A program made the translations under genes and the position numbers. A DNA stretch of 63,575 bases, counting the filler, from Hausera hauseri (taxonomy: Eukaryota), in assembly GCA_046269625.1 (NCBI GenBank). It is 12 parts of 12 records of this genome, joined end to end, with 100 filler letters (N's around TTAATTAATTAA, not from the genome) between each part and the next. Parts side by side here need not be neighbours in the genome. Positions count along the whole stretch, not along the records: positions 46,168 to 50,347 come from JBJURY010717102.1; 11 more parts are not named here. One strand, given 5' to 3'. A model generated the notes under the pieces. The model made no database searches. It had not been told where the DNA came from and was given only the letters and a program-made list of their open reading frames with translations. Shown here piece after piece: positions 1-50,503 of this stretch. Within the stretch, counting starts at the first letter, position 1, and every line of letters begins with the position of its first letter.

Positions 1-500
1 GTCAAGAATTTGAGAAGCTTCTTAGGGATCTGCAACTACTATAGAAGATTTATCCAAGGTTATGCAGCAAAGGCCAAAACATTGGAGCAACTATGCGGGT
101 TGAATAACATGAAACTAATATGGACCGAGCAATGTAACGAGGCTTTCGAGTCAATGAAAAGAGCCTTAGCCACACTACCAATACTACGTTTCCCTGATTT
201 CAACAGAGAACTTATCGTCGATACGGACGCAAGCTTTGACAAAAATGGAGCGGTACTGTCACAGAAGGATAGTTTGGGGCGCGAGAGAGTGATGGCCATG
301 TATTATTTCTGTCAACATTTCAACAATTTCCTATACGGGAAACGGTTCACATTGAGAACGGACCACAAGGCAATAACGTTCATGATAAAGATAAAAAAAC
401 CGATAACAGCCCAATTTCAGACGTGAATCAACTACCTGTCCAGTGTAGACATCAACCTGGAGTACAGAAAAGGCGCATGTCATGCGAACGCAGGTATGCT
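1..500 (+). pseudogene. Ty3/Gypsy pol fragment (RT thumb/connection and RNase H), internally deleted
   Basis: LRSFLGICNYYRRFI, WTEQCNEAF, LIVDTDAS..GAVLSQ, FTLRTDHKAI. The usual AY.S...E..Y....ELLA segment is missing, and there is a stop at 424-426. Confidence 0.9.
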
Positions 501-2049
501 ATGTTGGTTAATTGCTCCCTGGAATTCCAGCAAACTTGGATGACCGGATTTTGGTAACGTCTCTTATCGGAATTAAGGCGGTTCGTAAACAAATTGATAA
601 CCTGTGCTTTTTGGGGAATCAACTTACCCCCAGAAAAAGTTGATGGAACTCCAACAAAATAAGTAGACGGAACACTGGGGAATTTTACCTTAGTCATATT
701 CAAATATTCCACTGGTTGACATCGGATTTATTGGGAAACAATGAAATAAAGAACCATAATTCGACTTTCTGTCATCATTACCCACTTTGATACGCACATC
801 ACCACCAAAATGAATCACGTCAATCTTGACTTTAATAGGAATCCCACAAATGATTAGGTCATTAGCTTTTCCTTCGTCTCCTTTAACATTGAATAATCGA
901 TCAAGAACTATTCGAGCCAACCTCCTTGGAGCAGAGGGTAATAATGGTAGATCAGACTCTTCAGAACGATAATAATTCAAACATTTCCTCACTTGAGACA
1001 TTTTAATGATTTGATCGTATCTTCGAAGGAATGCTGAAACAACACTCTTTTCCGTTGTACTGTAGGTTGTCCAACTGCCTCAATGAATATATAATTCTGA
1101 AAATTCCTCTGGTATGAGGACAAGAAAATCTTTTAACAATTAATTCACAAAATGAAATAGGTTAAATTCCAAAAGAAAGAATTACACAGACAAATTAATA
1201 TTTGTTTTCACTTTCACTTTCAATTGTTCATTCATTTTTTACCGTGATGTATTTAAACATTTACTCCTATATAGTTTTTTTAGTTAACAAAAATCGGGTA
1301 AATCGACTCCCCTCCTCAAGAAACCCGACGACACTTTTCCCAGAATACATTCAAAAACTTGACAGATTTGAAAGAGTTCTCCTAATTCTGCTACATCACT
1401 ATTGGCATTCTGTTCAACAATTGCTTGTAACAATTCGTTGTACGAATTCGATACATTTGATATCGGGCAAATGCCGATTTGCTCGCGCGGGAACACAGCA
1501 GGAGGGCACCCTGCCCGTGGCAAAGGTGAAACTATAACGCAACAAAAAAGGAGGAAAAGTGTTTGTACCATATTCGGTTTTTGTGTGTACAAGATGTTGT
1601 ACTTTGTCGAAGTTTTGTTATCTACTGTACTTACTAAAAGTAACTCTGCGTGTCGTGCTTGCGTATTTGGAGTTTGCTTGCCGAGGTGTTAGTTGAGGAA
1701 AAAATGTCGCATTTTATCGTGAGTATTATTTTGGTTGAAGAAGGTGAAGATTGGAAAGGGTAGTTAGTAAAAGTTGAAGATGAAAGAAGAGGTGGAGATG
1801 TGAAAGATTGAGGATTTGGGAGGGCTCAGACGTTGAGGAGGATTGAGGAAAGATATGACATGAAGCAGAATTTGAAGAATGCGTGTTTGAAGAAAGTTGA
1901 AGATGTGAAGGAGAATGCAAATTTGGAAAAAGTTGAAGGCAAGAATCGAAAGAAGATTTATCTTCAATTGAAAGTCGTGTGTATTTAGTTACATTTGATG
2001 AGCGTGAAATGGTACTAAAGGAATCAAGAAAGGTGCCAGTAGGGTTGGT

Positions 2050-3337
2050 GTTGGTTTGTGTGTCTTCGGGAGAATCATCAATGAAGAAGGCTGGTTTTAA
2101 GTTTGTGACGTGCACATTTTGTTCTTTACCACTTTTAAGAATGGTAGCTGTATGAGAGGATAAATATAAAAGTTTGAATGGCCCCACGTATTGCGGTTGG
2201 GAACTAGTAGGTGAAGGATTGCGAAGCTAGACAAACCTGGCAGTATACAATCATTTGGTATATTTGACTTGTTATAATTTACTATTTTGCAAAATGAGCC
2301 TTTGTTTAGTATTACAGTGATTTTGCGCGCTACGAATCAGCTCGTCCGTTGGTGTGTTGTCCACATCAGTTAACACGTAAAGTGCTCGAATCAGTGTTCC
2401 AAACAGTGTTTCAGATGGTGCACGACCCGTGGTGGTGGAGGGTGTGTTTCGCCAGCCAAGCAGGACAAGAAGTAGAAGAGCTGTCCAGTTTCTGTGTGAT
2501 TCAGTAAGGATTTTAAGTGAGGTCTTTATTGAGCGGTGAAATCTTTCTAGTAAACCGTTCGCTTGGGGATGATATGGCGAAGTGTGTATGTTTAATCCAC
2601 AAGCGATTGACTAAGGATTTAAAGAGATTTGACTCGAATTATGGACCTTGGTCCGTGATAATGAAGCGAGGGGAGCCAAATCTGCTGATCCACGTTTTGA
2701 TGAAGAGCTCAGCGATAGTGTCTGTGTTGGTAGAACGTAATGGAATGGCTTCTAGCCATCGAGAAGCACGGTCCATCATGGTGAGTATGAATTGATGACC
2801 GTTGTCTGGGCGAAGAGGGCCCACTAGGTCCTTATGAACGGATTCAAAACGCGATGTACAGGTGAAGTGATATAATGGTGGCTTCAGATGCTTGTGAGTT
2901 TTGAATTTTTGGCACGCCAAGCATTCCTTAACCCACACCTGTACGTCTGATCTCATCGGCGGCCATATAACGCTACGTTGCAGAAGACGAAAAATTGCTT
3001 TGGCACCCGGATGATAAAGAGTATGTACGTTATGAAATGCAGTTTTCTGCAAAGATGAAGACAAAATTGGTTTGTGATTAACGGGTTTAGAAGTGTCATA
3101 GGCTATTCCGTCTATGATTTTGTGCCATTTAAAATACTTAATAATTTCCTGTGCTGGTACGTTTTGCCGAAGTTCTGCCTGTGAGAATTTGGGAGTGACT
3201 CCAATGATGTTAACCGTTCTGGACAAAAAATCGGCAACCAAATTGTCAGTGCCTGAAATATGTACAATTTTGAAACTGAATGTCGACAAGTACGATTTGT
3301 GACGTTCGTGTCGAGGTGAGGGAGCTTTCATATCCAT
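2050..3337 (-). pseudogene. Gypsy RNase H end and integrase
   Basis: NLVADFLSR, HHCC zinc-binding motif, DLVGP, WLEAIPL, WISRFGSP, ITDQG. Stop at 2639; a GPF-type motif lies near 2180. Confidence 0.92.
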
Positions 3338-3888
3338 GATGCGAATAAGAGGTTTGTGGTCAGTTTGAATCGTAAAAGACCTGGCAATTTACAAATGCGA
3401 GAAATGTTTCACGGCTAATACTATAGCTAGGAGCTCTCTGTCGAACGTTGAGTGACGACTTTCTATTGATGTAAGTTTCGGAGAATAAAATTCCAGAGGC
3501 TCGTTGACTCCGACGGCTGTGGTAGAGGCCTCTGTGGTTAATATCAGATCTGCGTCAGGCTGGGATAAGCTAGAATATCGACAGCTTTTAAACCTTCACG
3601 TAAATGGTCAAACTGGTTGACAAGTTCAGGAGTCCAGTGAATTAATTGTTCCTTCCATCCAGACGATAAAAATGCAAACGGTGCGGTTAATTCAGAGCAG
3701 TGCGCACATATTTGTGAACAAAGTGGAGTGTGCCAAGAAAAGAGCGCATTTCAGTTGTTGTTCGTGGCAATTGAATGTCTTTAAGCTGAGTTATGCGGGC
3801 TTGCTGAGGAGAGTGGCCAAATTTGGTGATGGCATGACCAAGGAAATTGATCTTGTATTGGAAAAAGGAGCATTTGGCGAAATTTACT

Positions 3889-4707
3889 TTAAATTATTTT
3901 GATGAAGGCGTTGAAAACTATGCGTAAGTGCTCAGAATGTTGTTTAGAGGATGACGATGCTATGAGAATGTTATCTATGTAAGGGAATGCAAAGTTTAGA
4001 CCGGCAAGAATTGTGTCTATGTGCCTTTGAAATGTTTGAGAGGCATTACGCAGACCAAAGGGCATGAAGACATACTCAAAAAGGCCAAAAGGTGTTGTTA
4101 CAGCAGTTTTCTGTATGTCAGCAGGTGAGACAGGAATCTGATGGTAGGCTTTATGAAGATCGATGGATGAAAATATGGTGTTTCCATTGAGTTTGTATAG
4201 GATATCATTGATGAGCCGTAATGCATATGCGTCCATTACCACAATGGTGTACAATAGGCGATAATCGCCACAGGGCCTGAAAGTACCGTCCTTCTTTGGT
4301 ACTACGTGTAGAGGTGAGGCTAAAGGTGACTTTGATTTTCTTATAATTCCTGCCTTTTCTAATTCATTGAACTCCGATTCCACAGTTTTGCGTCTGCATG
4401 GAGAAAGTGGTCTAACCTTCTGTTTAATTGATCTTTGGTGTTCAGTGACGATGTGATGGTACGTCGTAGAAGCAGGCTTGAAATTTAGGTCTTTCTTCAA
4501 TGCTCTAGGACAAGAAGTTGTGATATAGTCACGAAAGGCTATGTCCAGTTGCATCAATTGTGAGGTGAGGTGTGAGGTTGTGTCGGTGTTGGCAACTGTT
4601 TTTCTTGATACTGTACGAATGGAAACGTCACAATCGGAGTTATCAACATTCAATTTGTCTAATTTAACAAAGGATTTCTTTAGTATAGACTCCGGAGTTA
4701 CAGCCAA
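3889..4707 (-). pseudogene. Gypsy reverse transcriptase, inactive
   Basis: FSSIDLHKAYHQIPV, KTAVTTPFGLFEY, MPFGLRNASQTFQR. The catalytic YIDD reads YIDN. Confidence 0.93.
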
Positions 4708-7700
4708 CTGCGTGACCAGTGGTGCATTATTTTGTGGTTGTATTTTTGATCACACGATGCTGTCTGCAGTCGACAAGTAAATTGTAGTGCGATAGAACAT
4801 CAGAACCTAAGATGGGAGTTGTCATATAAGCAACAATAAACGTCCATTGAAAAAGTTCAGAGAAATGTGTTAAGGTGAAGGAGACGTCTGCAGTACCAGA
4901 AATGCGTAAAGATTGCACATTGGCAGTAAATAGCCTAGCAGAGGTGGGAAGAATTTTTAAAGAATGGAAAGATGAAAGTAGTAATGAGACGGCTGTAGCC
5001 GAATCAATCAAGAATTTAGTATGGTGTGGAGATGTAAGTGCAGCGTCCAATAGGAAAACAGCATGAGTGCGGCTGTTAAGTGATGAAAGATGGCCTTTGC
5101 CAGAATTTACCGTAGTTTCTGGCGGCTTTAGGTGTTTTTTGAATAGATGAAGAAGTTGGAGTGTTCTGGGTGTAAAACGTACACCATATAAGTAGCGTTT
5201 TGCACTGTCTTTGAACTTACTGTGATTAGAATTTACAGCCTATACAGCATTTTCGGCACTTCGATTGAATTTGGTGTGATAATAGCCGTCGCGAAGGCGA
5301 CTGGCCATCCTGGAGTTTACAGACAACGGTCAGCTTCAATTTGCACTGAGTCGCTCACGACTGGGAAAGGAAAGAGCGTCGAGTCTGCTGGATATAGCCG
5401 AAATAGCCTTGATGTAAAGCCGAATTTTCGGCTCGCATATGTTGAATTTCATTAACTATGTTGTTTGCGTTGTTTGGCGAGTTTTTTAACTGTAGATGTG
5501 CAACTATTGTTGGTGATTGCGTTGCGTGTAAAGCTGAAATCGTTGTACGTGCATTATTGTTATGAAAAATTTCATAACCTTTGTCCGCAAGTTGCGCCAG
5601 TTTATCTACCCACGTAGAATCCTCCACTAAAGTGAGAAGTGCGCGGATTTGGATTGGCAAGGATGATAAGAAATAACGTCTGAGAAGATCAGCGTTATTT
5701 TGTTGGTTCACGCCTAGTGAATTAAGTTGTCAGAGTGAGGTTCGAAGGAATTCTGAAGGTTTTTGCTGGCCAAGAGCATTTTCGTTGAAGTATTTTTGAA
5801 TATTAGAGTCTAGCGAAGGCCCAGTTGATGTACTTACGGCGTCCAATTGCGATTTGTAGAGGTCGGAGTAATTGAAAATATCAGATAGATTAGTGTCGAA
5901 GGATTTTTTGTTGGGCGGCAGATGAATTAGTAAACTGTTGGCTTTCTGAAAGGAATCGGTGATTTTGTGTGAGGCTTGTCAATTTGCGTGGAAATCTAGC
6001 CATGTTCTGCTGGAATTCTAACTATCAACGAAAGAATTGACGCACTGAAAGTGTGAAAAGGAGGAAGGAGTTGGCGACACGAAGGTTATGTTAGGCGACT
6101 TTTTTATCTCATCAGAGTTTGGGTCAGAACCACCATAAAGTTTAGGCTGAAGCGTGACACAAATGGATGAAAAAGGATGCAAAAGAAAGCTATACAGACG
6201 ATCATGCTGACGGATGTTAAAGCCATTGAAAAACAAGGCAAATTCAGACATGTCGGTGGCGTGTAAGATTGGAGTATGTAGCTCTTTTCCTAAGGTATCA
6301 TGATTTGCGGTATGAGTGTGGATGCGTATGTTGTATTTAAAAATGAAAATGGAAAAATAGGGCTGGTTGGAGCAAGAAGCGCGATGTGGTAACTGTTAAC
6401 ATTGGGGTTAAGCGTAATTAAACACTCAACCTTTACTTTATGCTAATATGTAAAGAGTAGACACCTTGATATTTGTTAGGTTTCGTGGACTCCAAAATCA
6501 TGACTTGAAGGGTTTTAGGAGTGCTATAATTTCATCGTATTCATTGTTCTCCTACTAATCACATGCTGTCATATATCGACATATGTACATGAGTTAATGA
6601 TTTAAATTTATGGGAGTGATACATTTATTAACAGTCTATAAGTCTATATCGAAATAAGGAATTTGTATTAGCGGTCATTTTGTATGCATTCGTTTTATAA
6701 TGTTGAGCATAATAACAATTTCGGAATAGTTCGATGTGCTTAATTTCTCAACAACGATTTAAACTACAACTTGTCTGTAATACTTCGTAGAGGTCATTCA
6801 AAATATCGGTCCAACATTTGCTTTCGTAACCTCGATTTAATAATGCTAAGGGGCTTCCATTTCTTGTAATATTGATAATTGGATGTTCGTCACCTTAAAA
6901 TTTCATTATAATTAATTAATCGAGGTCTTTATTCCTATTAAAATTTCGTAATGGATAATTATAATATCCGGTATGTATATCTCAGTCTGAATTTATCATA
7001 AGCCAAATCATATATTCTATCTCCATATTACTCGTCATTTGCATTATTCATATATGTATACATGAATTAACCCAAGGATATAGCATCTTATGATAGACAT
7101 TAGATATTTTTTTCAATGGTGTAACTTTCACTTCGAACTCTATATCAAACTGAATTTGTGGGGAATTTTCTCTGATACCAATATTATCATCATACCTCAT
7201 TAATTCTACTCAACCTTTATGGATTTCGATTATTTCTATTGTATATTACTGATCATCAACAACCAAAGATCATGCATTACTAGGTTTTTAAAGATCATCC
7301 AAACGGTTCGACTAATATTTGCTGAACTAACCGTTATTATTCTCAACGGCCACAAACATCGGGGCAGAAATAATGCATAATGGGTAGTTAATAATACTAA
7401 TTATATTTCTGTTTGTAATCTATATTCCATTATTTCCGAAGCTAACTCCCAAGGTAGTAATAATAATTATTCAAGACTCCAGAACCCAAGAGGCTGTAAT
7501 TTGCATTTTTATATTTAATTCCTTTAGTACAATTGGGATTATTCTTCATCTCTTCCATAACCTTGTACATAACCCTCATCGATGAATATTGTTACCTAAA
7601 TTTTTAAGTTAATCACGCCGCATCAGTTTAACATTTGTCCCCCTTTTTGCATCAAAAGATTGGTCCACTATTGAATTAACAAATTTCAAATAAAATTTTT

Positions 7701-12384: not shown

Positions 12385-12535
12385 GTTTTGTATTTATGTC
12401 AGATATTTGAAAAACTTCATCACTCCAATTCTGATCAAAGTTTTTAACAAATGGTGAAGCATTTATTTTTGATATTCGTACAAAATCACAGATTTTATAT
12501 TTTGTTTTACGTTTCTTTACTTCAACATTATGTAC
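12385..12535 (-). pseudogene. Polinton/Maverick integrase C-terminal fragment
   Basis: KYKICDFVRISKINASPFVKNFDQNWSDEVFQI, closely paralleling VRISKISTTPFIKNFNQN*SDEIF at ~23710-23790. Confidence 0.85.
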
Positions 12536-12542
12536 ATCATTC

Positions 12543-30878: not shown

Positions 30879-33800
30879 TTGTGCCCAACGTGCAGTAGAA
30901 TTGCGGCCCCTTGTCCATACCCCGACTTTTATGCGATGCACAAGCATCATCTTGGCCCGCTTACGCGTGCAAAGATGATGGTTGTGCATTGCCCCACATA
31001 TCCGCGATACTGTAGTAGTAAAGTGCATGACGTTGATGGTTGCCATAGTGTAATTGAGCAGTACAATGGAGCCAGAATAGTGCACGGTAAACGGGCCTAC
31101 GTTTGTCCCGGTTGTTCTATAGTTAATGAAATCAACTATGAACAATTACATAACCAGCACAAGGACCACTTGAACCAGTTTCAGCGATCCAAAAAGGAAA
31201 TAGTGATGGCGACAAGAAAAACCAGTATCCTCTCAACAAATAGGAAACGTCAGGCCTCAACAAGTCTTGACAAATATATCCGAAACAGTACCGAGCAGCA
31301 GCAGCAACAGCAGGAACCTTCCATTTCTGTCAAATACGATCTAAACAAATCGTACGTGGACATGAAAGCAAACATGTCGGGGACAACAATACTACAGCTG
31401 AGGCATATTCCGTCCAGCGTGAACAACCGGTTTGAATTGGAAATAGAGAAATTCCAACACCAACGTTGCAAAGTGCAATTGCAATGTGCACTTGCAGAAT
31501 TTAAAAATGTTGAAGGTGGCAGGAAACAATGGTACATATCACATCAAGCTGCACCATATTCGGAAGATTTTATCGCCGATGTAGTCAAAAAGCTGGATAA
31601 AAAAATCGTCAATTATACCGAAAAGGGTAGTGGCTGGCGAATTATAAAAATTGCCACTATCAGCTTTACCATAACAAAGTGGAGTGATATGATATATTTG
31701 TCTGGGCGATCATTCATACCGACACTTGCAGCTCTAAAGCAGTCTCTGTCGGTAGTGAATGTACAAAATACCGACGACGAATACTGTTTTATTTACAGTA
31801 TTCTGGCTATACTAAAATACGACGAAGTGGTTAGAAATCATGCAAATCGTACAAAGCAGTATCGGCTGTATTTTTCCGAATTGCAATTTGATGAAAGCTG
31901 GATGCCGATGAAACTGAAAAACATTCCAATTTCAGAACGGCGTAATCAGACGCTGTCAATCAACGTTTTCCGGTACAACACAATAATTGAAATACCAAAA
32001 GACGAAGAAATTTATAAGAACCTCCATGTGAACATAATTTATCGCAGTCGAAACTCGAATGGACGCTCGGTAAATTTGTCCCTGTTTGAGCAGGCCGAAA
32101 AATTTCATTACGTGGCAGTGACAAATCTGAATAGACTGTTAAACATGGAGCATGACCAGTTCATCAAAAAGCGAAAGCGATGCAAATGGTGCCTTGTATG
32201 TCTGCATGGATACAGGTCAAAAACAACATTGGAGAAACATGTGACGCTGTGCAAGCAGAATTCAACTGGAACAACCATGTACGTCATGCTACTCAAAACG
32301 GAGCTCCGATTCAGTGATTGGTCGAAAACGGCAGTCCGGCATGTGGTATATGCCGACTTTGAGGCAATTCTATCACTGCACAACGTGTACGATCAAAAAC
32401 ACGTTCCAATCGCCGTTCGTATGTTGGTTATCCTAATAAAAGCGGTCGATCAGCCGCGGTATTACGCCTTTCACGGCTGAAACTGAGTACGTGATTTCTT
32501 GCAGCAGTTGCAAACCATAGTGGAAACTGAAATCGCACTCTGGTACAGTAGAAATAGTAATAAACCCTTGATGTGGACAGATGAAGATGAACGTCTGACG
32601 TTTATAGTAACAGATGAATATTACCTGCGCCACAAAATATTACCGTTTCACGCACTGGAACAACTCGTACCGGAACACGATCATTTTACTGGTCGATATC
32701 TCGGAGCAGCATGTAATTCATGCAATTTGGCAAGGCGTGTGCGGCTATTCTTACCAGTGATCATTCATAATTTTCGAGGTAATGATTGCCACCATATACT
32801 GAAATGGGCCATTCATGGATTTCCACACTGGAAACTGTCAGTAATCCAACAACAATGGAGAAACACTTGTCCCTGTCAGCATGCATAAACCGGTTCCAGC
32901 TACGCTTCCTCGACTCATTGCAATTTCTCAATGAGTCTCTAGCAAAGCTCGTAAATGCCTTGCCGGATGTGCCGTTAACATTGACGCAATTTCCCACACA
33001 TTGCACGTAGCAAAGGCATATTCCCACATGACTTTGCAACATCACTTGAGCGACTTCGGACAAGAGAGGAATTTCCGCCACGATGACAGGTATCGCAGAA
33101 GATGAATACCGGAAACCACAGAGGTGTTGGACAAAACAGGTTGCAGAAACATGTTGGAGTACATTTTTCAGTATCTCAAACTGGACGTGTACCTATTATC
33201 CGATGTGTTTCAGACATTTCGAGCTAAAGCGTTGGCTGAATTTAGGCTGGGGCCACTCAACTTTTATTCCATATCGGGAATGAGTTTGGCGTCAGCTCTA
33301 ATGTCACTGGATCGAGACATTGAGCTGCTGCAAGACCCGGAAATGTACCGACTGTTTGATGTTGGTATTCGCGGCGGCATGGCATCTGTCAACAAGCATC
33401 AGATCTGCCCTACCGATACCACATCACTACTATATACTGACATTAATAACCTGTGCGGCTGGGCGCTTTCGCAACCCTTGCCGTACGGTTCATTCGAATG
33501 GGTAGTCGATAGACAAGATCTGGACGACATAATGGTCAAACTACCACGAGCAGACATGGCAGGATCAGTCGGATACCTGATGGAAGTCGATGTCGTGGTA
33601 CCAGATGAGCTCATGACGTTTTGGACGATTTGCCGGTCGCACCATTTAATCAATGTTCGCCAGGCTCAAGTAAACAAACTGCTCATGAAGCATGAATTGA
33701 AGCTGAATTACGTGGTCCATTGGAGTCTGCTACAGTTCTACATGCAGCTCGGTATACGCGTCACACAGCTGCATAGTTCAATACGATTTGCTCAGGTCCC

Positions 33801-34648
33801 ATATTCAAAGCGTACATAGATGGAAATTCGGAGAAAGGTGCCGCAGCTTGTACAAAGTTCGAAAAGGACTACTAGAAGCTGAAAAACAATTCTCTGTACG
33901 GAAAAGCAGTGGAGAATCTGAAAAAGCTGCTCAATGTGCGCCTATGCAATAGCGAAAAGCGGTTGGTCATACAAGTAAGGTGCAGTTTCGGCGGTCAATG
34001 ACCATTGCCGATAGATTGGTTGCGGTGCTGTTAAACAGCGAAGTCGTTCTGGACCGGCCAAGTTACATCGGACAAATGGTATTGGACCTGTGCAAGTTGC
34101 GGATGTATGAGCTACAGTATCGTGATTTGGCACGTTACTGGCAAATGTTTGACAGCTGTAACATTAGTATAATTGTCGGTGACAGTTTTTTCCTGCGGCT
34201 GAAAAAAGTCAATCGCGAACAGCTACTGCGGCAAATGCAGTCAGATGGATTACTGGACACGTCCAACTATCCACCGGATCATTCGTTGTACAGTATTGCG
34301 ATCACCAAAATCGGCTGCTTCAAGGATGAAAGTGAAGGCAGGGTTCAGCATCGGGAATGGATATTTCTACGGCCAAAATGTTATAGCCTTTTAACTGACG
34401 GTGGACCGAAAATGCGCGCCAAAGGAGTTCAGTTGGCCCAGACAAAAATAAACCACGGTGATCATCGCCGTATCTATGAAGAAAAAGGACAAACAAAGGC
34501 TGTTATATCACAAACGCCCATGCGATCGATTTAGCACCAGCTGTATACGGTGACCAATACAAAAGTCGCTTTATCATGCAATGATGATAAGCGTAAGTAG
34601 GTGAGGCGAAATAAGAGTTTGGCGTACGGATATTGGCGTTTGGAATAA
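30879..34648 (+). pseudogene. Protein-primed family B DNA polymerase (pPolB, EndoVII/HNH-containing class) of a Polinton/adintovirus, frameshifted
   Basis: KGSGW, vOTU-like DEYCFIYSILA...FHYVAV, C2H2-like CLVC..H, ExoI VYADFEA, HNH-like DHFTGRYLGAACNSCNL, ExoII IHNFRGND, FLDSLQF, ExoIII YLKLDVYLL, motif A YTDINNL, motif B KLKNNSLYGK, GCFKDE, LRPKCY, AKGV, DDKR, AYGYW*. Confidence 0.95.
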
Positions 34649-34844: not shown

Positions 34845-35336
34845 TCATAAGCTAAAATCAAAAGCAAAGTAAGTCAAATCAGTGTAAACTTTCCCAGCTT
34901 CCATATTGGTGATTTGACGCCGTGTAGATCCTTGTATTCTTTCAACTTCAATGTTAGATGGCCTTTAGCTCCTTCCGGTGCCAAAACTGCTTTAGTGCTG
35001 CTGCTGTTTCTCCACCATGTGAACCGACAATTTTCGCAATATTTCCTTTGAGAAAAATCGACGATATATCGCGGATATCGTTACTCAACACCAAATCACT
35101 GTCAACTTTTCTAATAGTGTCTTCCATTGTATCCAAATCATCGTCGCTGATCTTTTTCACCAATAGATTATATTTCACCGGATTGATTTTGACCGTTTGA
35201 GTCAATGGGAATTGAATAGCGTTGTGCAGATAATGTAAGTTGTATCCATTACACAACCGAGAATTTCTGAGCGACTATTTGCTGTACCGTGGCTTTTTGA
35301 GAGACTGTCACTTGCTGAATTGTTTTCCAAAGGCAT
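34845..35336 (-). pseudogene. Unknown Polinton accessory ORF, frameshifted, convergent on pPolB
   Basis: A 100-aa ORF at 34954-35256 with coding-like flanks. It lies between the pPolB 3' AT-rich region and the DEDD-like gene. Confidence 0.4.
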
Positions 35337-35635: not shown

Positions 35636-36125
35636 TATTTGCAGGAAACATAGTCAATACAAAGCTGTAGACATTTTTGTAAGCATAATGTGGTTCATGA
35701 TCACAATACGGACATCGGATATCGTCAGGTACCATTGCCAGTGAGTTGTTCGATGTTGTTGAATACGTCGTCATTCGCAACTCTGGAAACTGTAAATGGA
35801 GTTCTGTAAACTTTTGTCAGTCAATTTGATTTTTAATGTAAAATATTGTATTTTCATTGTCAAAACAATCACAAATGTCGCCCATAAGACACGTCGCACA
35901 GAAAATTGAATTGCCGTTATACCAATGAAATCTATGACGATGTCGAAAGAGAAATCTGTTTGTAATTTTCGCTTTTTCTGTCAGGTCATTCCACACAATA
36001 CCGGACTTGAATATGTAAACAAGCGGTTCTAAAATATTACAAACGTCCATAATGCATAATTCCTTTATTACGTACCGGGCATTATCATCTTGGAAAGCTT
36101 CAATATCTATAAATCCTGTCGCCAT
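35636..36125 (-). pseudogene. DEDD-type 3'-5' exonuclease-like accessory protein with C-terminal Cys/His cluster
   Basis: FIDIEAF....YVIKELCI, W..L...AKITNRFL..HRHRFHW..G, FYIK, then past one TGA: CPYCDHEPHYAYKNV. This pattern is familiar from invertebrate Maverick accessory ORFs. Confidence 0.68.
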
Positions 36126-36202
36126 TACTTATCATTTACAAAATCATTTTTGTTTTTAACACAAGCATAAACAACTAACTAATATTATTAATATCACAAT
36201 CA

Positions 36203-40984: not shown

Positions 40985-43690
40985 GTCTGCGCAGCATTCC
41001 GTAGGCCAAAAGGCATGTACAGATATTCGTAGAGGCCAAAAGGAGTAGTGGCGGCTGTTTTCTCGATATCCTCAAGTGCCACAGTAATTTCGTGGTAGGC
41101 TTTGGATAAATCAATAGTAGAATAAATTGTAGTTGAATCGAGACGGTGTAAGATATCCTTAATGAGTGGCAACGGGTATGCATCCATTATGGTCAGAGTG
41201 TTCAACTGGCGATAATCTCCACATGGTCTAAAAGTTTCATCCTTCTTTTGCACGACATGCAATGGCGAAGACCACTGGGATTTGGAGCTACATACAATGC
41301 CGGAGCGTTCGAGGTCTAGAAATTCGGCTTCAACGGCCTGTCTACGACGAGGAGACAATGGACATACTTTCTGGCAGATAGGTCTCTGATGTTGTGTTAT
41401 AATGTAGTGAAAAATGGTATTTGATGGTGTAAAAGACCTGTCTTTTTGAATAATCCTAGAACAAGATACGTTGATGAATTGCTGCAGACTTGNNNNNNNN
41501 NNCGAGATTTTACCAGGAACTGGTTGTATCGGTAACAGTAGCAATTTGGGCGTTATTTGGTGATCGAAAATTAAGTGGTATTCGATGCAGGATGGTAGTA
41601 TTGAAGATGGTAGTGTTACCCAGTGATTTGGTAGTGGTAACGGGTTAACGTTCATCACAGTGCAATCTCCAATCATCAGTAATATCGTTTTTTAATAATT
41701 TATGAAACAAATTGCCATGATTGTAAAAAAATGGTTTGTGCAACGGTTTTTTAATATCGATTTTCGACTCGCATTTACTCGCACAACAGAGGAAATGGTA
41801 TTGACGTGATCGAATCGGTTCTTATTGCAACCACTTGTTAAGCAACGTTGTTTGTAATCGACGGAGATTATAGTGCGAAAGAAAGTCGGATCCTAAAATG
41901 TCTGTCTGGACGTTTGCAAGGATAAACGTCCAGTGGAACGTTTGCGTAAATTTCGGAAGGGTAAAAGAAAGCCTACATGTACTGGAAACATGCATCGGTT
42001 GTCCGGAAGCTGTAAATAGAGGTTTATTTTTGGATGAAGTGTGTTGAGTTGAAAAGGTGAGCGGCAGTAAAGAAATCGTTGCACCTGAATCGATAAGGAA
42101 GTCTATGTGGCGTGATGTTGGTAACGTAGTTACTGCTTTTAATGCAAATATGACGAAAGAGACTTTTCGGCTGGTAGAAACTGGAGAATGGCCTTCGTCA
42201 AAACTCGCCGTAAGCTCTAACGGTGGCATTATTTTTTGGCAGTAGTGAACTTGGGCGGCTGTTAAAAGGTAAGAAAGAAAGTCCGACGTTTGTATGTTGA
42301 GTGTTGCTTCTAAAGGTATAACCAGGAATACACTTATGCGCATCATATTTAAATTTTGCGTGGTAAATGCAAATAGCATTGTTAACGTGATACTTTTGGG
42401 TGTAAAAGCGGCACCCGAGATGATATTTTTGCGCTTAATGAGCAAACCTATCATGGTAAAAACAGATCCGCGATCGTGCCGGAGAAGGTGATCGACCTCT
42501 ACGTACAGAGCGTGTGCGATCGTAGGTGGAACACTTTCGTTGAGTCATAACGATTTCATTTAATCTCTTGTTGATATTGTTTATCGAATAATGTAGGGCT
42601 GTGTTTTCCGCTCGCAACTGTTGTATTTGAGATTCTAATGTATTATCGTTTGCTGTAAGTGCTGTAGAAATGATAGGTTGTGTTAAGATGTAAAACCTCG
42701 TACGTTTTGTCTGCAAGTTCGGATAACTTATCTAGTTCTGTCGATTCCTCGACGACGGTAAGGAAGGCCTTGATCTGAATCGGTAATGCTTTGAGAAAGT
42801 AACGTCATAAGAGATCGGAATTATTTTGTTTTGTAACGCCGAGTGTTTGCAGTTGAGAGAGAGAGGTTCTGAGAAAATCGGATGGTTTTTGTGTACCCAT
42901 AGCGTTATCATTGAAGAGTCTGTGAATTATGGAATCCAGACGGTTCCGCGAGTTTTAAAACTGCATTATAGAGATTGGTGTATGGGTCGGATTGTTGAAA
43001 GATGTCTAAAATATTGTGAATATAAGTCTTTACTGTGGTTGGTAAGAGACAAAGTATGCTATGAGCTTTGGCTGAGTGATCGATAATACTGTTAGACTGC
43101 AGCCAAAGTTTGTGAAAGTTCAGCCGTGTTTTTCTGGACTTTCCATGGTCGATAAAATATTCTGTGCACTGAGAAGAAGCGTGTTTGGCTGGAGGTATAG
43201 TAGGAGTATAAGTGTTAAAAGTAGATAGTGTGGCGACGGTTGTTGATTTATGGAAAAAGGTTAAGGGTGTTAATCTAAAGTTAATTTTATCAGTAGTGAC
43301 AATGGTGAGTGAAGAATTCATGCCACCGCGGATACAAATGTTTATGTGAATAATAATATATTGTGTTCAAGGGACTGAAAGGTTACGAAAATTGACATTA
43401 ATTACAGGTAAGTTGTTGTGAGATAAAACTCAGAGATGTTAGAGAAGTGTAGTACATAATTGTGCAAGTAGGATGCGTCTATAAAATGTGTTGTTCTTTG
43501 TGCGAGTAAATGGCAATTATTGAGGAAGAATAAAAAGGAAAGAGTCGGTGTGAGCCCTAGTGGTTGATGTAGTGACGGAATAGACCATGACGTGGGACCC
43601 ACTGACAGAACAGATGGCCGGGCAGTCTGTCACACTGATGCACACAAAAATCCGGGGAGACCGACTACCCTCCGGTGGGTCCAGTCAAAA
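40985..43690 (-). mobile_element. Degraded CsRn1-like Ty3/Gypsy element (5' part: leader, gag, PR, RT), same family as 1726-6251
   Basis: Gag CFYHDRFAH*AQKYHLGC (C-x2-H-x9-[C>Y]-x3-C), protease FLIDSGATISLLP, ILGSDFL, RT SPLHVVQKKDETFRPCGDYR..MPFGLRNAAQ. Cut at the linker. Confidence 0.92.
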
Positions 43691-45739: not shown

Positions 45740-46167
45740 ATTTTGATATCAATAATCCGGAAGCATGTTGTTAACGCATAAATGTCACGTTCTTAAACCC
45801 TGTTGCATGATAAAACGTGAGTGAGAGGTTCCGTCAATAGCAATAAATGAGGTAGTAATGTACTAAGTCTCACGGGAACGATAACGCAAAGTTCACCGAG
45901 CAAATCCCGTACTTAATTTGTATGCGGTGATCTTGACAAAGCGCTCAAACCCTTCAACATCTGTTGTAGCAAAGGCAAAAACTCCCTATATAGTCTTTTA
46001 TGAGCTCCAACAACAACTGAATTAAATAAATAGCGTAAAAGGCACATGAAACTACTGGGATCTTTTGNNNNNNNNNNNNNNNNNNNNNNNNNNNNNNNNN
46101 NNNNNNNNNNNTTAATTAATTAANNNNNNNNNNNNNNNNNNNNNNNNNNNNNNNNNNNNNNNNNNNN

Positions 46168-46412
46168 ATATTTTCATTCAGATTCATACATATGGTTACT
46201 GACTGAAGTTTTTCTATTTTGATATTTAGTGGTAAATCTGTTTCTACAATAGGTTTCTTACATCCCATAATACGACAATTGCCGCTTGGAAACATGACAA
46301 TTTTGTAATCTCTATAATTAAGAATACACTGTCTTGGTTTCCATTCGTTAAACTGGAGATGTTGGACATTTTTTGCATCTGTTTTCGCCTTGTAATTAAT
46401 ATTAACTAATAT
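46168..46412 (-). CDS. Divergent TATA-binding-protein-like ORF, partial (runs off the contig; ATA at the expected start)
   Basis: ILVNINYKAK...KPRQCILNYRDYKIVMFPSGNCRIMGCK...IKIEKLQSVTICMNL follows the TBP repeat pattern (NIV.T; LIF.SGK.V.TG.K; FKIQN.V...D). Confidence 0.62.
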
Positions 46413-46505
46413 TTTTAAAAAAATGTCGCAATTACATGTCTATTTATACTTATTTTCAACCAATCAGAATATATAAAGAAATTAATTCAGTTGAAAAGAA
46501 ATAAA
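46413..46505. promoter_or_regulatory. Compact divergent promoter candidate
   Basis: TATAAATA on the minus strand (46441-46448), CCAAT at 46460-46464, TATATAAAG at 46470-46478 and TCAGTT at 46487-46492, between two head-to-head ORFs. Confidence 0.5.
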
Positions 46506-47260
46506 ATGGAGCACTGTATACAAGTTGATACTGATGAAAATGGTAAGGTCATAATTATTGACCCCAATAGTATTATTGATGGAATTATTATGGAAGAAGA
46601 TGAATTTGAGGAATGTAATGACAAATCACCACTGATAAGCGTATAATTTTATGTACAATTTACTTGATTTAATTATTTTAATAGGATTGTGAAAGTTCAG
46701 AAGAGAGTAAAAATAATGTTGATAGAATTATTATGGAAGAAGAAGAATGTAATGACAAATACTCATTGATAAGCGTATATTTTTATGTATAAACTACTTG
46801 ACTTAATTATTTAATAGGATTGTGAAAGTTCAGAAGAGTGTAAAAATGATGATGGACTTATTATGGAAGAATGTAATGTCAAATCCACATTGATAAGCGT
46901 ATAATTTTATGTACAATATACTTGACTTAATTATTTTAATATGATTGTGTAAGTTCAGAAGGCAGTAAAAATAAAAGACCATTTGATGAATATGTAGATC
47001 AACTAGCAATGATCTACCAGTCTAATGCCCTTGCTACTAAAATTAACACTTATGAAAAGGATTTTGATATTAGCAATCTTCTTAAACAATTAACAGATAC
47101 AATTGAAAGTGGTATATTTCACAAATTAAGAATTATGTCTGAAGCCACATTGCCAACAACTGTACGAGTACATGTTGAATTATTCACTAGATGTATGATC
47201 ATTTATGATATCATAATAAATGTTGGTGCAAAAGCGATGGAACGAAAAAAGACTTTATAA
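46506..47260 (+). CDS. Four-exon acidic protein built from a triplicated exon-intron unit
   Basis: Exons 46506-46640, 46685-46774, 46818-46898, 46943-47260. Phase-0 introns of 44, 43 and 44 nt; the third ends AT rather than AG. AATAAA at ~47305. Confidence 0.6.
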
Positions 47261-48077
47261 AAAGACTTGTATGTTTAGTAAACTGTTATATGTAGTTGTT
47301 ACGAAATAAAACTTTTATATGTGTTTATGTGTTCTTAATTTTATAGCCATAAAAAGAACAAGTCACTAAATACAAGATTTATTACAAATATCGTACTTAA
47401 CAAAGTTACTAATTACATTGTTTAGTTCTTTTTGACTGTTTTCCAATTCTTCTACCATTTTGATTATTTTATCAATCACCGGAGTAACAAATCAGTCTTC
47501 TTCGTACTACCTCCAACAGAACCTCGGGTGCTACATACGCAAAATCATCTGTCGTACAAAACAGAGCCTGCACTTCATGTAATCCTTGATGAATTTCTTC
47601 TTGTTTCAATGTTTTATCAATGCTCCATAAACTGTCATTTTCGATTGAAATAAAGCCAAGATATTTGAACTATCTGGTTGAGACATTTTCACAAGTGACA
47701 CTTTTACACTAATATTTATAGTAGCTTTGTGAAATTAAAACAAAATTAAAAAAATTTTGGAGCGAAATTCAAATTTTGAAGTTCGGCTACAAAGCATACA
47801 GTACTCGTGCTTGTGCGTATCACTTTCATAACTGTGTGCCTCCTGTCTACGTCCTATTAATCGTGCGTGTATGTATCACTTTCTCTACCCCGTGAATCAT
47901 TTGCGAACCACATCGATTTTTCTCCGTGGGCCGAGCTTTGATGCTGTGTACTAACATCCATCTACTGATATTTATTCGGAAATCTGAGATGGAAGACCCG
48001 AATTACAATGTGGCACTTCCTCCTTGTTCCCGCTTAAACAATTATCGAATTTTGACTCCATGGGACCTAAAAAAACT

Positions 48078-48965
48078 ATGGGAAGTCTGTACCAGTTGCA
48101 CTTTGGACCAATAATATTCGACATGCACTCGATCGATTTAAATTCTAATAGCACGGCGCATAGTGCATGGTATTTCCAATCGNNNNNNNNNNCACGCGGT
48201 GCCATGTGCTAATCATCAATATTGGCAATATCGGAAAACCGGTATTATTGATTTTTGCACACAGCACATGTACTGAGCACCTGCACAGTGCATATCAAGA
48301 TGCGCCTTGATGTGCACTATCGATTAGCATTTGGTTCCTTTCGATTCGATCAATTGTGCAATGGGCAGCTATCCATTTGTGAAATGTGCATAAATATGCA
48401 TAGCAACTGTACCTAACGGCATTGTTGCCTAAAACACTACCGATCGATAATTCTCCATGTGCACTATCGATTGGCACATGTGCAAATTGATTTATCGATT
48501 CGCACACACCCGGGGGCTGGTGCAGACTTCCCATTTTTATGCTACTGAAATCCACTTAATCGATTTAAATTCTAATTGCACATTCACATAATGCATCGTT
48601 TTTCCAATCGATTGCACCCGATGCCATGTGCTAATGATCAACATTGGAAATATCCGAAATCCGATATTACTGATTTTTGCACACTTGCACATGTGCAGTG
48701 CACATACGCAAGTGCACCAATCGAGGTGCATTAATGTGCACCATCGATTAGCACTTTGTCCCGATCGATTCAATCAATACAGCAGAGCGCAGCAATTAAT
48801 TTGTAAACTGTGCAAAAATGTGCTTAGTAACAGTGCCTAATGGCGCTGTTGCCTAGCACACTACTAATCGATAGTGTTCCATGTGCACTATCAATTGGTA
48901 CATGTGCAAAATTGATTTATCCATTACCTCCCCTCTACGCCGAATGGGACAGATTTCCCATTTTT
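48078..48965. repeat. Two ~428-bp tandem units rich in palindromic hexamers; first unit bounded by an 18-bp inverted repeat (MITE- or satellite-like)
   Basis: ATCGATTTAAATTCTAAT at 48132 and 48559. ATGGGAAGTCTGTACCAG (48078-48095) matches the reverse complement of 48517-48534 at 17/18. Confidence 0.85.
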
Positions 48966-50503
48966 CCCCTATTAACACTAACATTGATTTCCTTCCTTCA
49001 AGTTTTGAGATGTCAATTTTTAATAAACGGTGTTTCTTTTAATCAATTTTTTACATTTTCATCTCTAATCCTAAAACTTAAGTAATTCTAGTAACTAATA
49101 GATTTCAATGTTAAGTACTTTTAAAATATTTTTTGTTAACTTTGCATTTTAATTTTCCTAACTTTTCTCCTCGCTTTTCTGTATTTAAACAACTTTATAC
49201 TTTGGTTGAACCTTGTTGTCAAAATATGACTGCACCTTTTTGAAATTACTCATTATTTAATACACATGTTATGAAAAATCATGTAGGATGTTAGATTGTA
49301 TAAGTACAAGTAAAACGAAATTTGAACAATACATTTTTGATAATTTTCATGCTACAAACAGGACTCAACTATTTATAAAAAATATTGAAAAATTGAACTA
49401 AACCAATGATTTTTACTGAAAGTTACGGCAAAAAGAATAAATTGTATTTAACTATTATGTAATCAAGAAATAAAAAATCCCGTAAAGCGCAAACATGTCC
49501 AAAAGCTCATATTGGTTTTTGAAATATCTATTATCAGGAGTTCATGATTTATTGAAATTATCCTGGACTCTACTGGATCACAAATTGCCGGACTACTTAT
49601 GTCAAAACGTAGGTATAATTTACATGCAATAACTCCTCTGAACAATTATTAAATTATATTAATTGGCAATATTGAAAGCTCTCGTGACTGTCTTTCCAAA
49701 TTTAAAAACCGCTTTAAAATTGATAAACCCAGTGAAAAATTATAGAGCAATAAAATGAAGAGATTTTCCACAAATTCCAAATTTGACGAATTTAATAACT
49801 TATACGGCATAAACCGTTCGTTCAATTTCAAAAATGTTTTATATCTAAAACCGCTAGTGTTATGGCTCTATAATAAAATAGTTTTCAAGCATTTATCTAA
49901 AAATTCATTTTTTCTGAATTTTGGAAAAAATTTTGGTTCTTGTCCCACTGTTTAATGACCGGATGAATAAATATGTACGAATTTCTGGAAAAAATAGTCA
50001 ATCTGATCGGAATTGTTGCAGGTGGTATGTAGATGACGCATATGACCAAGTGACTGCTCATGAACGGTTGGTGGGTAACTAACAAAGAAACAAATTTTAC
50101 TGTAAATGTACAATTTTTATAACATAGTCAGAGAGGCGTGCAAAATATAATGCTGATTAATACTATGAAAAAAATTATGCCGACAAAGCTATAATAACGC
50201 ATTTTGGAGCCTTGAAATGCAGTACCATTTCGCACTTGTTCAAATCCCTCCCACAATGTTTAGAAATTTGGAATTTTGACCACATTTTTATTACTTTTCT
50301 CATATAAATGTTCTTTTAATATTCGATTTATCGATATTTTGTGAATCNNNNNNNNNNNNNNNNNNNNNNNNNNNNNNNNNNNNNNNNNNNNTTAATTAAT
50401 TAANNNNNNNNNNNNNNNNNNNNNNNNNNNNNNNNNNNNNNNNNNNNAACGGGTAATTTTCAATGACGATTATCGTTCGTAACCAACGTCGATTTTCTGA
50501 CAG

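Follow-up and report, generated by a model that had tools for sequence, protein, structure and literature searches.

Does a mobile element in this genome carry its own TATA-binding factor, and if so, which genes would such a factor serve? The question is raised by a short open frame on the minus strand at the extreme end of a contig (46168-50347) in the window, by which we mean the whole stretch of 63,575 nucleotides that was analysed, a series of small contigs strung together by N44-TTAATTAATTAA-N44 linkers. The preliminary description of this DNA had read the frame as part of a highly diverged, minimal TBP-like protein encoded by a virus or mobile element, possibly one of the Maverick-like elements. 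The host is eukaryotic and probably an invertebrate animal, because the window contains retrotransposon pieces together with exon-like matches to the MIB_HERC2, PI4K_N, RhoGEF, SSXT, Sec63, and ankyrin families. Broken Ty3/gypsy-like retrotransposon genes (protease, reverse transcriptase, and integrase), recognised by motif, lie at 1-5730 and 40985-43366, and an 8-kb contig of purine-rich (GA/GACA) simple repeats with many gaps at 12385-20729 opens with the last 40 codons of a Polinton integrase (12386-12508). A sigma-70 scan stayed at chance level and is in any case irrelevant to a eukaryotic host.

Read from 46412 to 46170 on the minus strand, the frame is free of stops, gives 81 residues, and includes every motif quoted in the preliminary description. 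These residues (46170..46412) comprise the N-terminal lobe and the first strand of the C-terminal lobe of a protein that we term mini-TBP, with no initiator methionine and cut by the contig end. Nine more open codons precede the fragment before a stop is reached, none of them ATG, and the codon aligned with the initiator methionine of the relatives reads isoleucine in the window copy, which is the reason why the fragment is missing from the ORF track, as had been remarked. Downstream, the frame enters an artificial N44-TTAATTAATTAA-N44 linker (46068..46167) between joined contigs, so that the second TBP repeat is absent through assembly, and the upstream gene beyond this contig terminus is no true neighbour. 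The window copy, truncated and start-less, is thus probably dead and likely makes no full protein unless a non-ATG start is used. A canonical TATA box, TATAAATA, lies on the minus strand at 46441..46448, 36 nt before the position of the relatives' start, and is likely the putative promoter of the mini-TBP gene. On the plus strand, CCAAT followed by TATATAAA (46460..46477) faces a divergent gene, and this stretch is likely a putative bidirectional promoter region. The divergent accessory gene itself (46506..47260, plus strand) consists of three acidic 109-nt repeats separated by short GT..AG-like spacers and then an 83-residue ORF (47009-47260); it is probably spliced and has no Pfam match.

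The identity of the fragment comes from its relatives. Taken alone, it has no match in Pfam and no sequence match in the PDB. The ESM Atlas gives weak evidence, namely TBP clusters at 0.93 whose recognition value does not reach the bar. When scored with a profile built from 88 family members, all less than 60% identical to the closest relative of the fragment, it reaches 107.7 bits, compared with a best score of 10.5 bits in 1000 shuffles, and in the six-frame translation of the window the next match after it has an E value of 0.35. Its closest relatives are two proteins of 146 residues, 77% and 75% identical to it, and in both the second half matches PF00352 (E values of 1e-11 and 2e-14). A word-free search gave 45 proteins at E ≤ 0.001, including one spurious repeat protein (P0017), and a 30-sequence profile recovered 402 family clusters among 5800 candidates; searched against the PDB, the same profile matched 35 sequences, all of them TBP. 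The family has a median length of 151 residues, with a single 357-residue form among the 7999 longer candidates scored, and this search for longer forms returned no cellular TBP.

The full-length relative that is 77% identical to the fragment (P0002) was modelled with a pLDDT of 94.9. The model aligns over all 146 residues to residues 66-238 of yeast TBP (Z 13.2-13.6, rmsd about 2.5), its top match has a Z score of 13.7 (rmsd 2.4, 146 residues aligned), and the best match to anything other than TBP reaches a Z of only 6.8. A Foldseek search at E ≤ 0.001 (44 matches counted) gave TBP only among the matches listed. The predicted structure of this relative therefore has the two-lobed saddle of PF00352, as the preliminary description had anticipated, and the fragment is the front half of a member of a family of TBP-fold proteins of about 150 residues. 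The family is under purifying selection, with dN/dS values of 0.08-0.38 in 16 of 16 pairs that are more than 60% identical. P0002 is only 21-25% identical to cellular TBPs, and relatives are found among Polinton genes, both of which bear out the proposal of a TATA-binding-type factor encoded by a virus or mobile element and not the TBP or TRF2 of the host. We consider it very probable that the fragment derives from an element-borne TBP-fold gene.

The residue anatomy of the family suggests what has been kept from TBP and what has been remodelled. Positions are given in yeast TBP numbering, checked against a colinear fungal TBP (in L037) and Table 1 of PMC12529657, and their mapping comes from alignments of sequences and profiles, not from superposing structures residue by residue. 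From 155 proteins, 135 were of 130-200 residues and 129 passed a stirrup-motif filter, leaving 90 at less than 70% identity. Three of the four intercalating phenylalanines are kept (F116 in 90/90, F190 in 90/90, and F207 in 89/90). The equivalent of F99 is lost, with phenylalanine in that segment in 4/90, the register being that of the sequence alignment. N69 is kept in 87/90, as are P191 (83/90) and V213. The two glutamates that bind TFIIB are also kept, E188 in 89/90 together with E186; both stirrup positions are acidic in 135/135 proteins of 130-200 residues, including the six dropped by the filter, and in 26/26 of the loci that reach the stirrup among 29 picked on an N-lobe motif. The window copy ends upstream of both positions. 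On the DNA face, six residues are replaced by conserved others, V71 by Asn (88 of 90 members), V122 by Arg (89), T124 by Met (90), N159 by Ser (89), I194 by Arg (87), and L205 by Asn (89), and V161 to Thr and V203 to Cys are further conserved changes. As judged from the alignment, the DNA face of the family is polar and conserved. In TBPm3, specificity is altered through three positions, I194, V203, and L205 (PMC1636458).

The shortened helices and the missing N-terminal extension that had been noted in the fragment hold for the family as a whole. In the model of P0002, helix H1 is reduced and H2 is absent, there being no helix of at least four residues between the strands at 45-51 and 65-77, and the median spacing across the H2 region is 21 residues versus 34 in TBP. 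In cellular TBP, TFIIB binding is described as depending on the two glutamates, and TFIIA, TAF1, Brf, Mot1, and NC2 as binding a basic patch that lies largely in H2 (Ravarani et al., 2020, PMC7221094).

The mini-TBP gene of the relatives sits among Polinton genes. A scan of metagenomes gave 29 mini-TBP loci, which form 24 groups at 95% identity, and 11 of these loci hold an A32-like ATPase, an rve integrase, an adenoviral-type protease, a polymerase, or a putative capsid gene. A further 14 have a gene that we call Polinton-linked on the basis of the longer loci (ten SSB-like, three DEDD-like, and one F10/LRR pair), and four are short contigs that are uninformative. Polymerase, integrase, and ATPase genes lie beside the mini-TBP gene in L007 and L009, and ATPase, integrase, and protease genes in L025. 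In L007 and L009 the mini-TBP gene is about 2.2-2.4 kb from the contig end and is directed towards the ATPase, integrase, penton-like, pX-like, and capsid-like genes, and the polymerase gene, at the far side, runs in the converging direction. An endonuclease VII-like insert is present in the polymerases of the relatives and makes them resemble the HNH-bearing pPolB2 class of Jeong et al. (2023). The putative capsid ORFs (403-427 and 338-376 residues) are conserved and lie where the double jelly-roll major and single jelly-roll minor capsid genes of a Polinton would be expected; they have no match in Pfam, PDB, or PHROG, and size and position are the basis of the capsid and penton labels. The commonest neighbour of the mini-TBP gene folds like the T7/Enc34 SSB (Z 7.3-8.2, at the caution level of the tool), and three of its four best structure matches are phage proteins, two of them named SSBs; the ESM Atlas did not identify this SSB-like family (F1), and homology of F10 to it is not supported (probability 0.5%). 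The DEDD label of another neighbour was assigned by motif.

Several other features of these loci were recorded. In some elements (L007:1502-2135, L011:2374-3082, L012:1140-1838, L017, and L001) a short GT..AG intron appears to divide the SSB-like gene, which is unsplit in L009 and L010; this points to nuclear, spliced transcription. Accessory genes near element ends (L009:225-719, L012:4008-4316, and L016:1918-3327) encode a ubiquitin-conjugating enzyme, a dual-specificity phosphatase, and a leucine-rich-repeat protein with a signal peptide. A Pfam scan of 45 neighbouring ORFs gave no TFIIB-like domain, in loci that are incomplete and with a method that also misses the putative capsid genes. 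Among the viral contigs scanned, mini-TBP was not found; one pattern match (L030) was rejected as a longer, more TBP-like viral protein. Queries with capsid, ATPase, pX-motif, integrase, and polymerase found no Polinton in the viral contigs, the sole integrase match (L049) being a Mu-like phage by gene content. Five prokaryotic genome records (L033, L035, L036, L037, and L038) carry TBP genes of eukaryote or giant-virus type, one with introns, which is likely bin contamination.

Does the window copy itself belong to such an element? Its own 4.2-kb contig has no hallmark Polinton gene, and this would be expected if the gene were a paralogue of the host TBP, of TRF2 or TRF3 type, or a domesticated copy. 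However, that reading is at odds with the 21-25% identity to cellular TBPs, with the Polinton neighbours of the relatives, and with the residue at L5.1 (F116), which is Phe in 90/90 family members and not the Trp described for TRF2/TBPL1 at this N-lobe position (PMC7221094). It is also at odds with sequencing depth, which, summed, is 6,475-532,872 over 46168-48967 versus 5-22 over 48968-49947, a measure that is not a copy number and that was taken from contigs of a run that also matches the flank without differences and may be the source sample. We regard a host paralogue as extremely unlikely. The depth step falls at the end of a tandem duplication (48120..48965; two copies of about 424 nt, 76% identical) that borders the highly repeated stretch. 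It is about 2.5 kb from the mini-TBP gene, on the upstream side, and this distance resembles that from gene to contig end in L007 and L009. The end of the duplication, near 48965, is the only candidate element end present. Another highly repeated stretch, separate from the element, lies at the opposite end of the contig (50088-50347). Three other runs (X2-X4) were rejected as signs of spread to other species, since they share the depth profile of X1 and X2 has the flank without differences. No RNA data set stood among the runs listed, a result that carries no information on expression. The start-codon position is not among the differences, among the rows listed.

Other contigs of the window carry homologues of the integrase, penton-like, pX-like, capsid-like, polymerase, SSB-like, and DEDD-like genes, 22-72% identical in the matched stretches. 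A Polinton core fragment (20841..24968, minus strand, several frames broken) contains a homologue of family F5, an rve integrase, penton-like and pX-like genes, and the start of the putative major capsid gene. A protein-primed DNA polymerase B (30879..34645, plus strand, several broken frames) has an endonuclease VII-like motif at 32676, and on the minus strand of the same contig are homologues of the two genes most often found beside mini-TBP, an SSB-like gene (34957-35274) and a DEDD-like gene (35637-36128). Both contigs are separate from that of the mini-TBP gene, to which no physical link is seen. Given its high repetition and the occurrence of these Polinton genes elsewhere in the window, on contigs not linked to it, the window copy likely belongs to a Polinton element. 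The suggested tie to Maverick-like elements thus holds for the relatives, through the 11 of 29 loci with hallmark genes, and for this copy it is indirect.

There are two promoter classes in the mini-TBP Polintons. Virion and integration genes are preceded by the sequence ATAAACA, and the TBP, SSB (first exon, F2), and F10 genes by an ordinary TATA box, which TCAY often follows about 30 nt later. In eight core modules ATAAACA is the top 7-mer and occurs 46 times on the coding strand versus once on the other, compared with 10.6 ± 3.0 (maximum 17) in shuffled controls. After de-replication at 80%, 26 of 28 virion and integration genes have ATAAAC in the 120 nt before them, versus 2 of 33 genes of the other class (TBP, F2, F10, F7, and F8) and a background of 27 of 606 tiles from other window contigs; three of the 10 core families were classed only after inspection of their upstream DNA, and including them brings the count to 34 of 37. 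Conversely, a canonical TATA box at 30-70 nt precedes 19 of 33 genes of the other class versus 5 of 37 core genes, with 8 of 18 TBP genes having no canonical TATA box by the pattern used. All of these counts come from related loci (24 groups at 95% identity), so that p-values overstate the case. Upstream of the TBP gene in L001, L011, L012, L017, L018, L023, and L028, TTTAATGCATTAATT-like and TCATAATT-ATG motifs take the place of a clear TATA box.

The position of the motif is also constrained. The distance to the ATG is 31-40 nt for half of the ATAAACA sites (17/34), and the integrase sites, at 83-95 nt, precede a small overlapping ORF by 31-34 nt. Where the motif lies inside the upstream gene, codon choice favours it, with Ile-Asn encoded as ATAAAC in 12 of 18 cases near gene ends versus 3 of 36 elsewhere. 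The core contig of the window has five sites on the minus strand, which is the coding strand (20988..24650, starting at 24650, 23536, 22383, 21398, and 20994), roughly one for each gene, and the opposite strand has none. The C at position 7 of the TATAAACA box is fixed across elements down to 41% capsid identity. The variant GTAAACA is mildly enriched (11 versus 5.0 ± 2.1, maximum 10), ATAAATA is not (10 versus 14.9), and a T immediately precedes ATAAACA in only 32 of 47 sites even though P191, said to demand T there, is kept.

Two small ORFs are associated with these sites. One of 54-100 residues begins with Met-Gly, has Cys-Cys nearby, and overlaps the integrase start in another frame 31-36 nt after ATAAACA (in the regions of L007:4740, L009:4597, and L003:3082, in L024, and near 24614 on the minus strand of the window); it could encode a lipid-anchored virion protein. 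The other, Lys/Arg-rich and of 50-94 residues, has its own TATAAACA site directly 3' of the ATPase gene in L007, L009, L003, and L024, was missed by a 70-residue cut-off in three loci, and is a candidate for a DNA-condensing core protein.

Based on these data we put forward a hypothetical mechanism in which mini-TBP is a late-gene factor that is itself made early and drives the virion and integration genes together with host TFIIB and Pol II, and on balance we favour it with moderate confidence. We propose that host TFIID reads the ordinary TATA boxes of the TBP and SSB genes, so that mini-TBP would be made early. The protein would then bind the TATAAACA boxes before the virion and integration genes, preferring TATAAACA over TATAAAAG, and would recruit host TFIIB through the kept glutamates and hence RNA polymerase II, with the loss of H2 putting it out of reach of Mot1, TAF1, TFIIA, and NC2. 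The parts of this scheme that we infer are the element membership of the window copy, the DNA binding and specificity of the protein, its use of host TFIIB, its escape from the H2-docking regulators, and the order from early to late, and the suggested link between motif and protein rests on their co-occurrence. The changes on the DNA face of mini-TBP are spread over both lobes and do not map only onto the deviating C of the motif. For cellular TBP, the N-lobe is described as contacting the 3' half of the box (PMC1636458) and the second Phe pair as inserting at step 7-8 (PMC1935006), and it is on the side of the Phe pair entering at step 7-8 that the family has lost F99. The wider statement, that a lineage of animal Polintons runs an early-to-late cascade with one 150-residue, TFIIB-wired, H2-less TBP retuned to a private TATAAACA box, we put at an even chance. 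The element would bring its own TBP-fold factor, as the preliminary description had it, but the evidence points to a specificity factor for one gene class and not to a general basal transcription factor.

The motif could have another reader. The Forkhead consensus RYAAAYA includes ATAAACA, GTAAACA is mildly enriched, and position 1 varies, so a host Forkhead protein might read the motif while mini-TBP does something else, for example serving as a decoy, by sequestering TFIIB or sitting on host TATA boxes, a role that the TFIIB glutamates would suit equally well. The strict orientation of 46 to 1, the narrow spacing (17/34 at 31-40 nt), and the lack of ATAAATA enrichment nevertheless fit a core promoter better than an enhancer site, and a decoy has no obvious need for a conserved, retooled DNA face; we consider this combination unlikely. 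It would also be conceivable that host TBP reads TATAAACA as a weak TATA box and that mini-TBP is a regulator-resistant booster of all element promoters with no specificity of its own. Cellular TBP is described as able to accept C at position 7 of the box, albeit only through Hoogsteen pairs that avoid a clash with leucine (PDB 1qn3; PMC4402545), and the loss of H2 would fit escape from Mot1 regardless of sequence (PMC7221094). What such a booster leaves unexplained is the C fixed at position 7 in elements so far diverged and the conservation of six DNA-facing positions as non-cellular residues, and to our judgement it is no more probable than the Forkhead reading. Finally, ATAAACA might be unrelated to mini-TBP and signal either polyadenylation or termination for the upstream gene or the start of transcription: it resembles AATAAA, is often near the end of the preceding gene, and reads AATAAACA in 8 of 47 sites. 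Many sites, however, are found within the coding sequence of the preceding gene, as much as about 100 nt ahead of its stop codon, and one (before F11 in L008 and L009) is in a gap between divergent genes where that strand has no gene upstream, which makes this reading very improbable.

The essence of our proposed mechanism, a late-gene factor with its own promoter word, touches on the question of whether animal Polintons act as viruses with a timed gene programme. The case for animal Polintons as viruses was reportedly argued by Starrett et al. from gene content; a promoter word before the virion genes and a candidate reader for it make a timed programme testable with one small protein and a reporter. 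If the mechanism is correct, mini-TBP and its box would be a natural orthogonal TBP-promoter pair and, unlike the herpesviral solution, one that keeps the contact with TFIIB and deletes the surface for host regulators. It would also inform the question of the minimal requirements of a TBP. The mini-TBP family is where the interest lies; the window copy by itself adds little.

The literature on Polintons holds one trace of such a gene. A 'TBP' gene label appears in the legend of Fig. 5 of Starrett et al. (2021), and apart from this label the Polinton texts searched describe no TBP gene or promoter classes. The texts of PMC11161782, PMC10748475, PMC8097293, and 10.64898/2026.06.19.733378 have no occurrence of TBP or TATA, and PMC7221094 has no mention of polinton or maverick. 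The view that this is an undescribed system therefore stands insofar as the texts searched gave no description of the family or its motif, although the PMC8502044 supplement, Repbase, and subscription papers could contain one, and is tempered by the label already in that legend. In gene content, the relatives' loci are like Polintons, Mavericks, and adintoviruses, with an rve integrase, an A32-like ATPase, an adenoviral-type protease, and a polymerase with an endonuclease VII/HNH-like insert.

With cellular and archaeal TBP (PF00352; 1ytb, 1cdw, 7egb_P), mini-TBP shares the two-lobed saddle and N69, F116, F190, P191, F207, V213, E186, and E188; it differs in having 146 residues where TBP has 173, in the absence of H2 and the reduction of H1 in the model, in the loss of the F99 equivalent, and in the replacement of V71, V122, T124, N159, I194, and L205 by conserved others. 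The TBP-like proteins of large DNA viruses, to which structural matches were seen, are likewise a virus-borne fold that has lost the N-lobe regulator patch, and the best match in a viral structure library is 16% identical. These viral TBPs are described as having lost the TFIIB glutamate signature along with the basic patch of H2 (Ravarani et al., 2020, PMC7221094) and as often coming with their own TFIIB, whereas mini-TBP has lost the H2 patch and kept the glutamates. The herpesviral TBP mimics, which drive late genes from a variant TATA word, offer the closest functional parallel that we can draw by inference: KSHV ORF24, EBV BcRF1, and UL87 would share with mini-TBP a viral TBP fold, a polar DNA face, as described for ORF24, and a variant TATA word before late genes (PMC12529657). 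ORF24, however, is described as a multidomain protein of 752 residues that works in a six-member viral complex, has no TFIIB glutamates, and reads TATTWAA (PMC12529657), whereas mini-TBP is a bare core of 150 residues that keeps these glutamates and has only weak structural matches to the herpesviral mimics.
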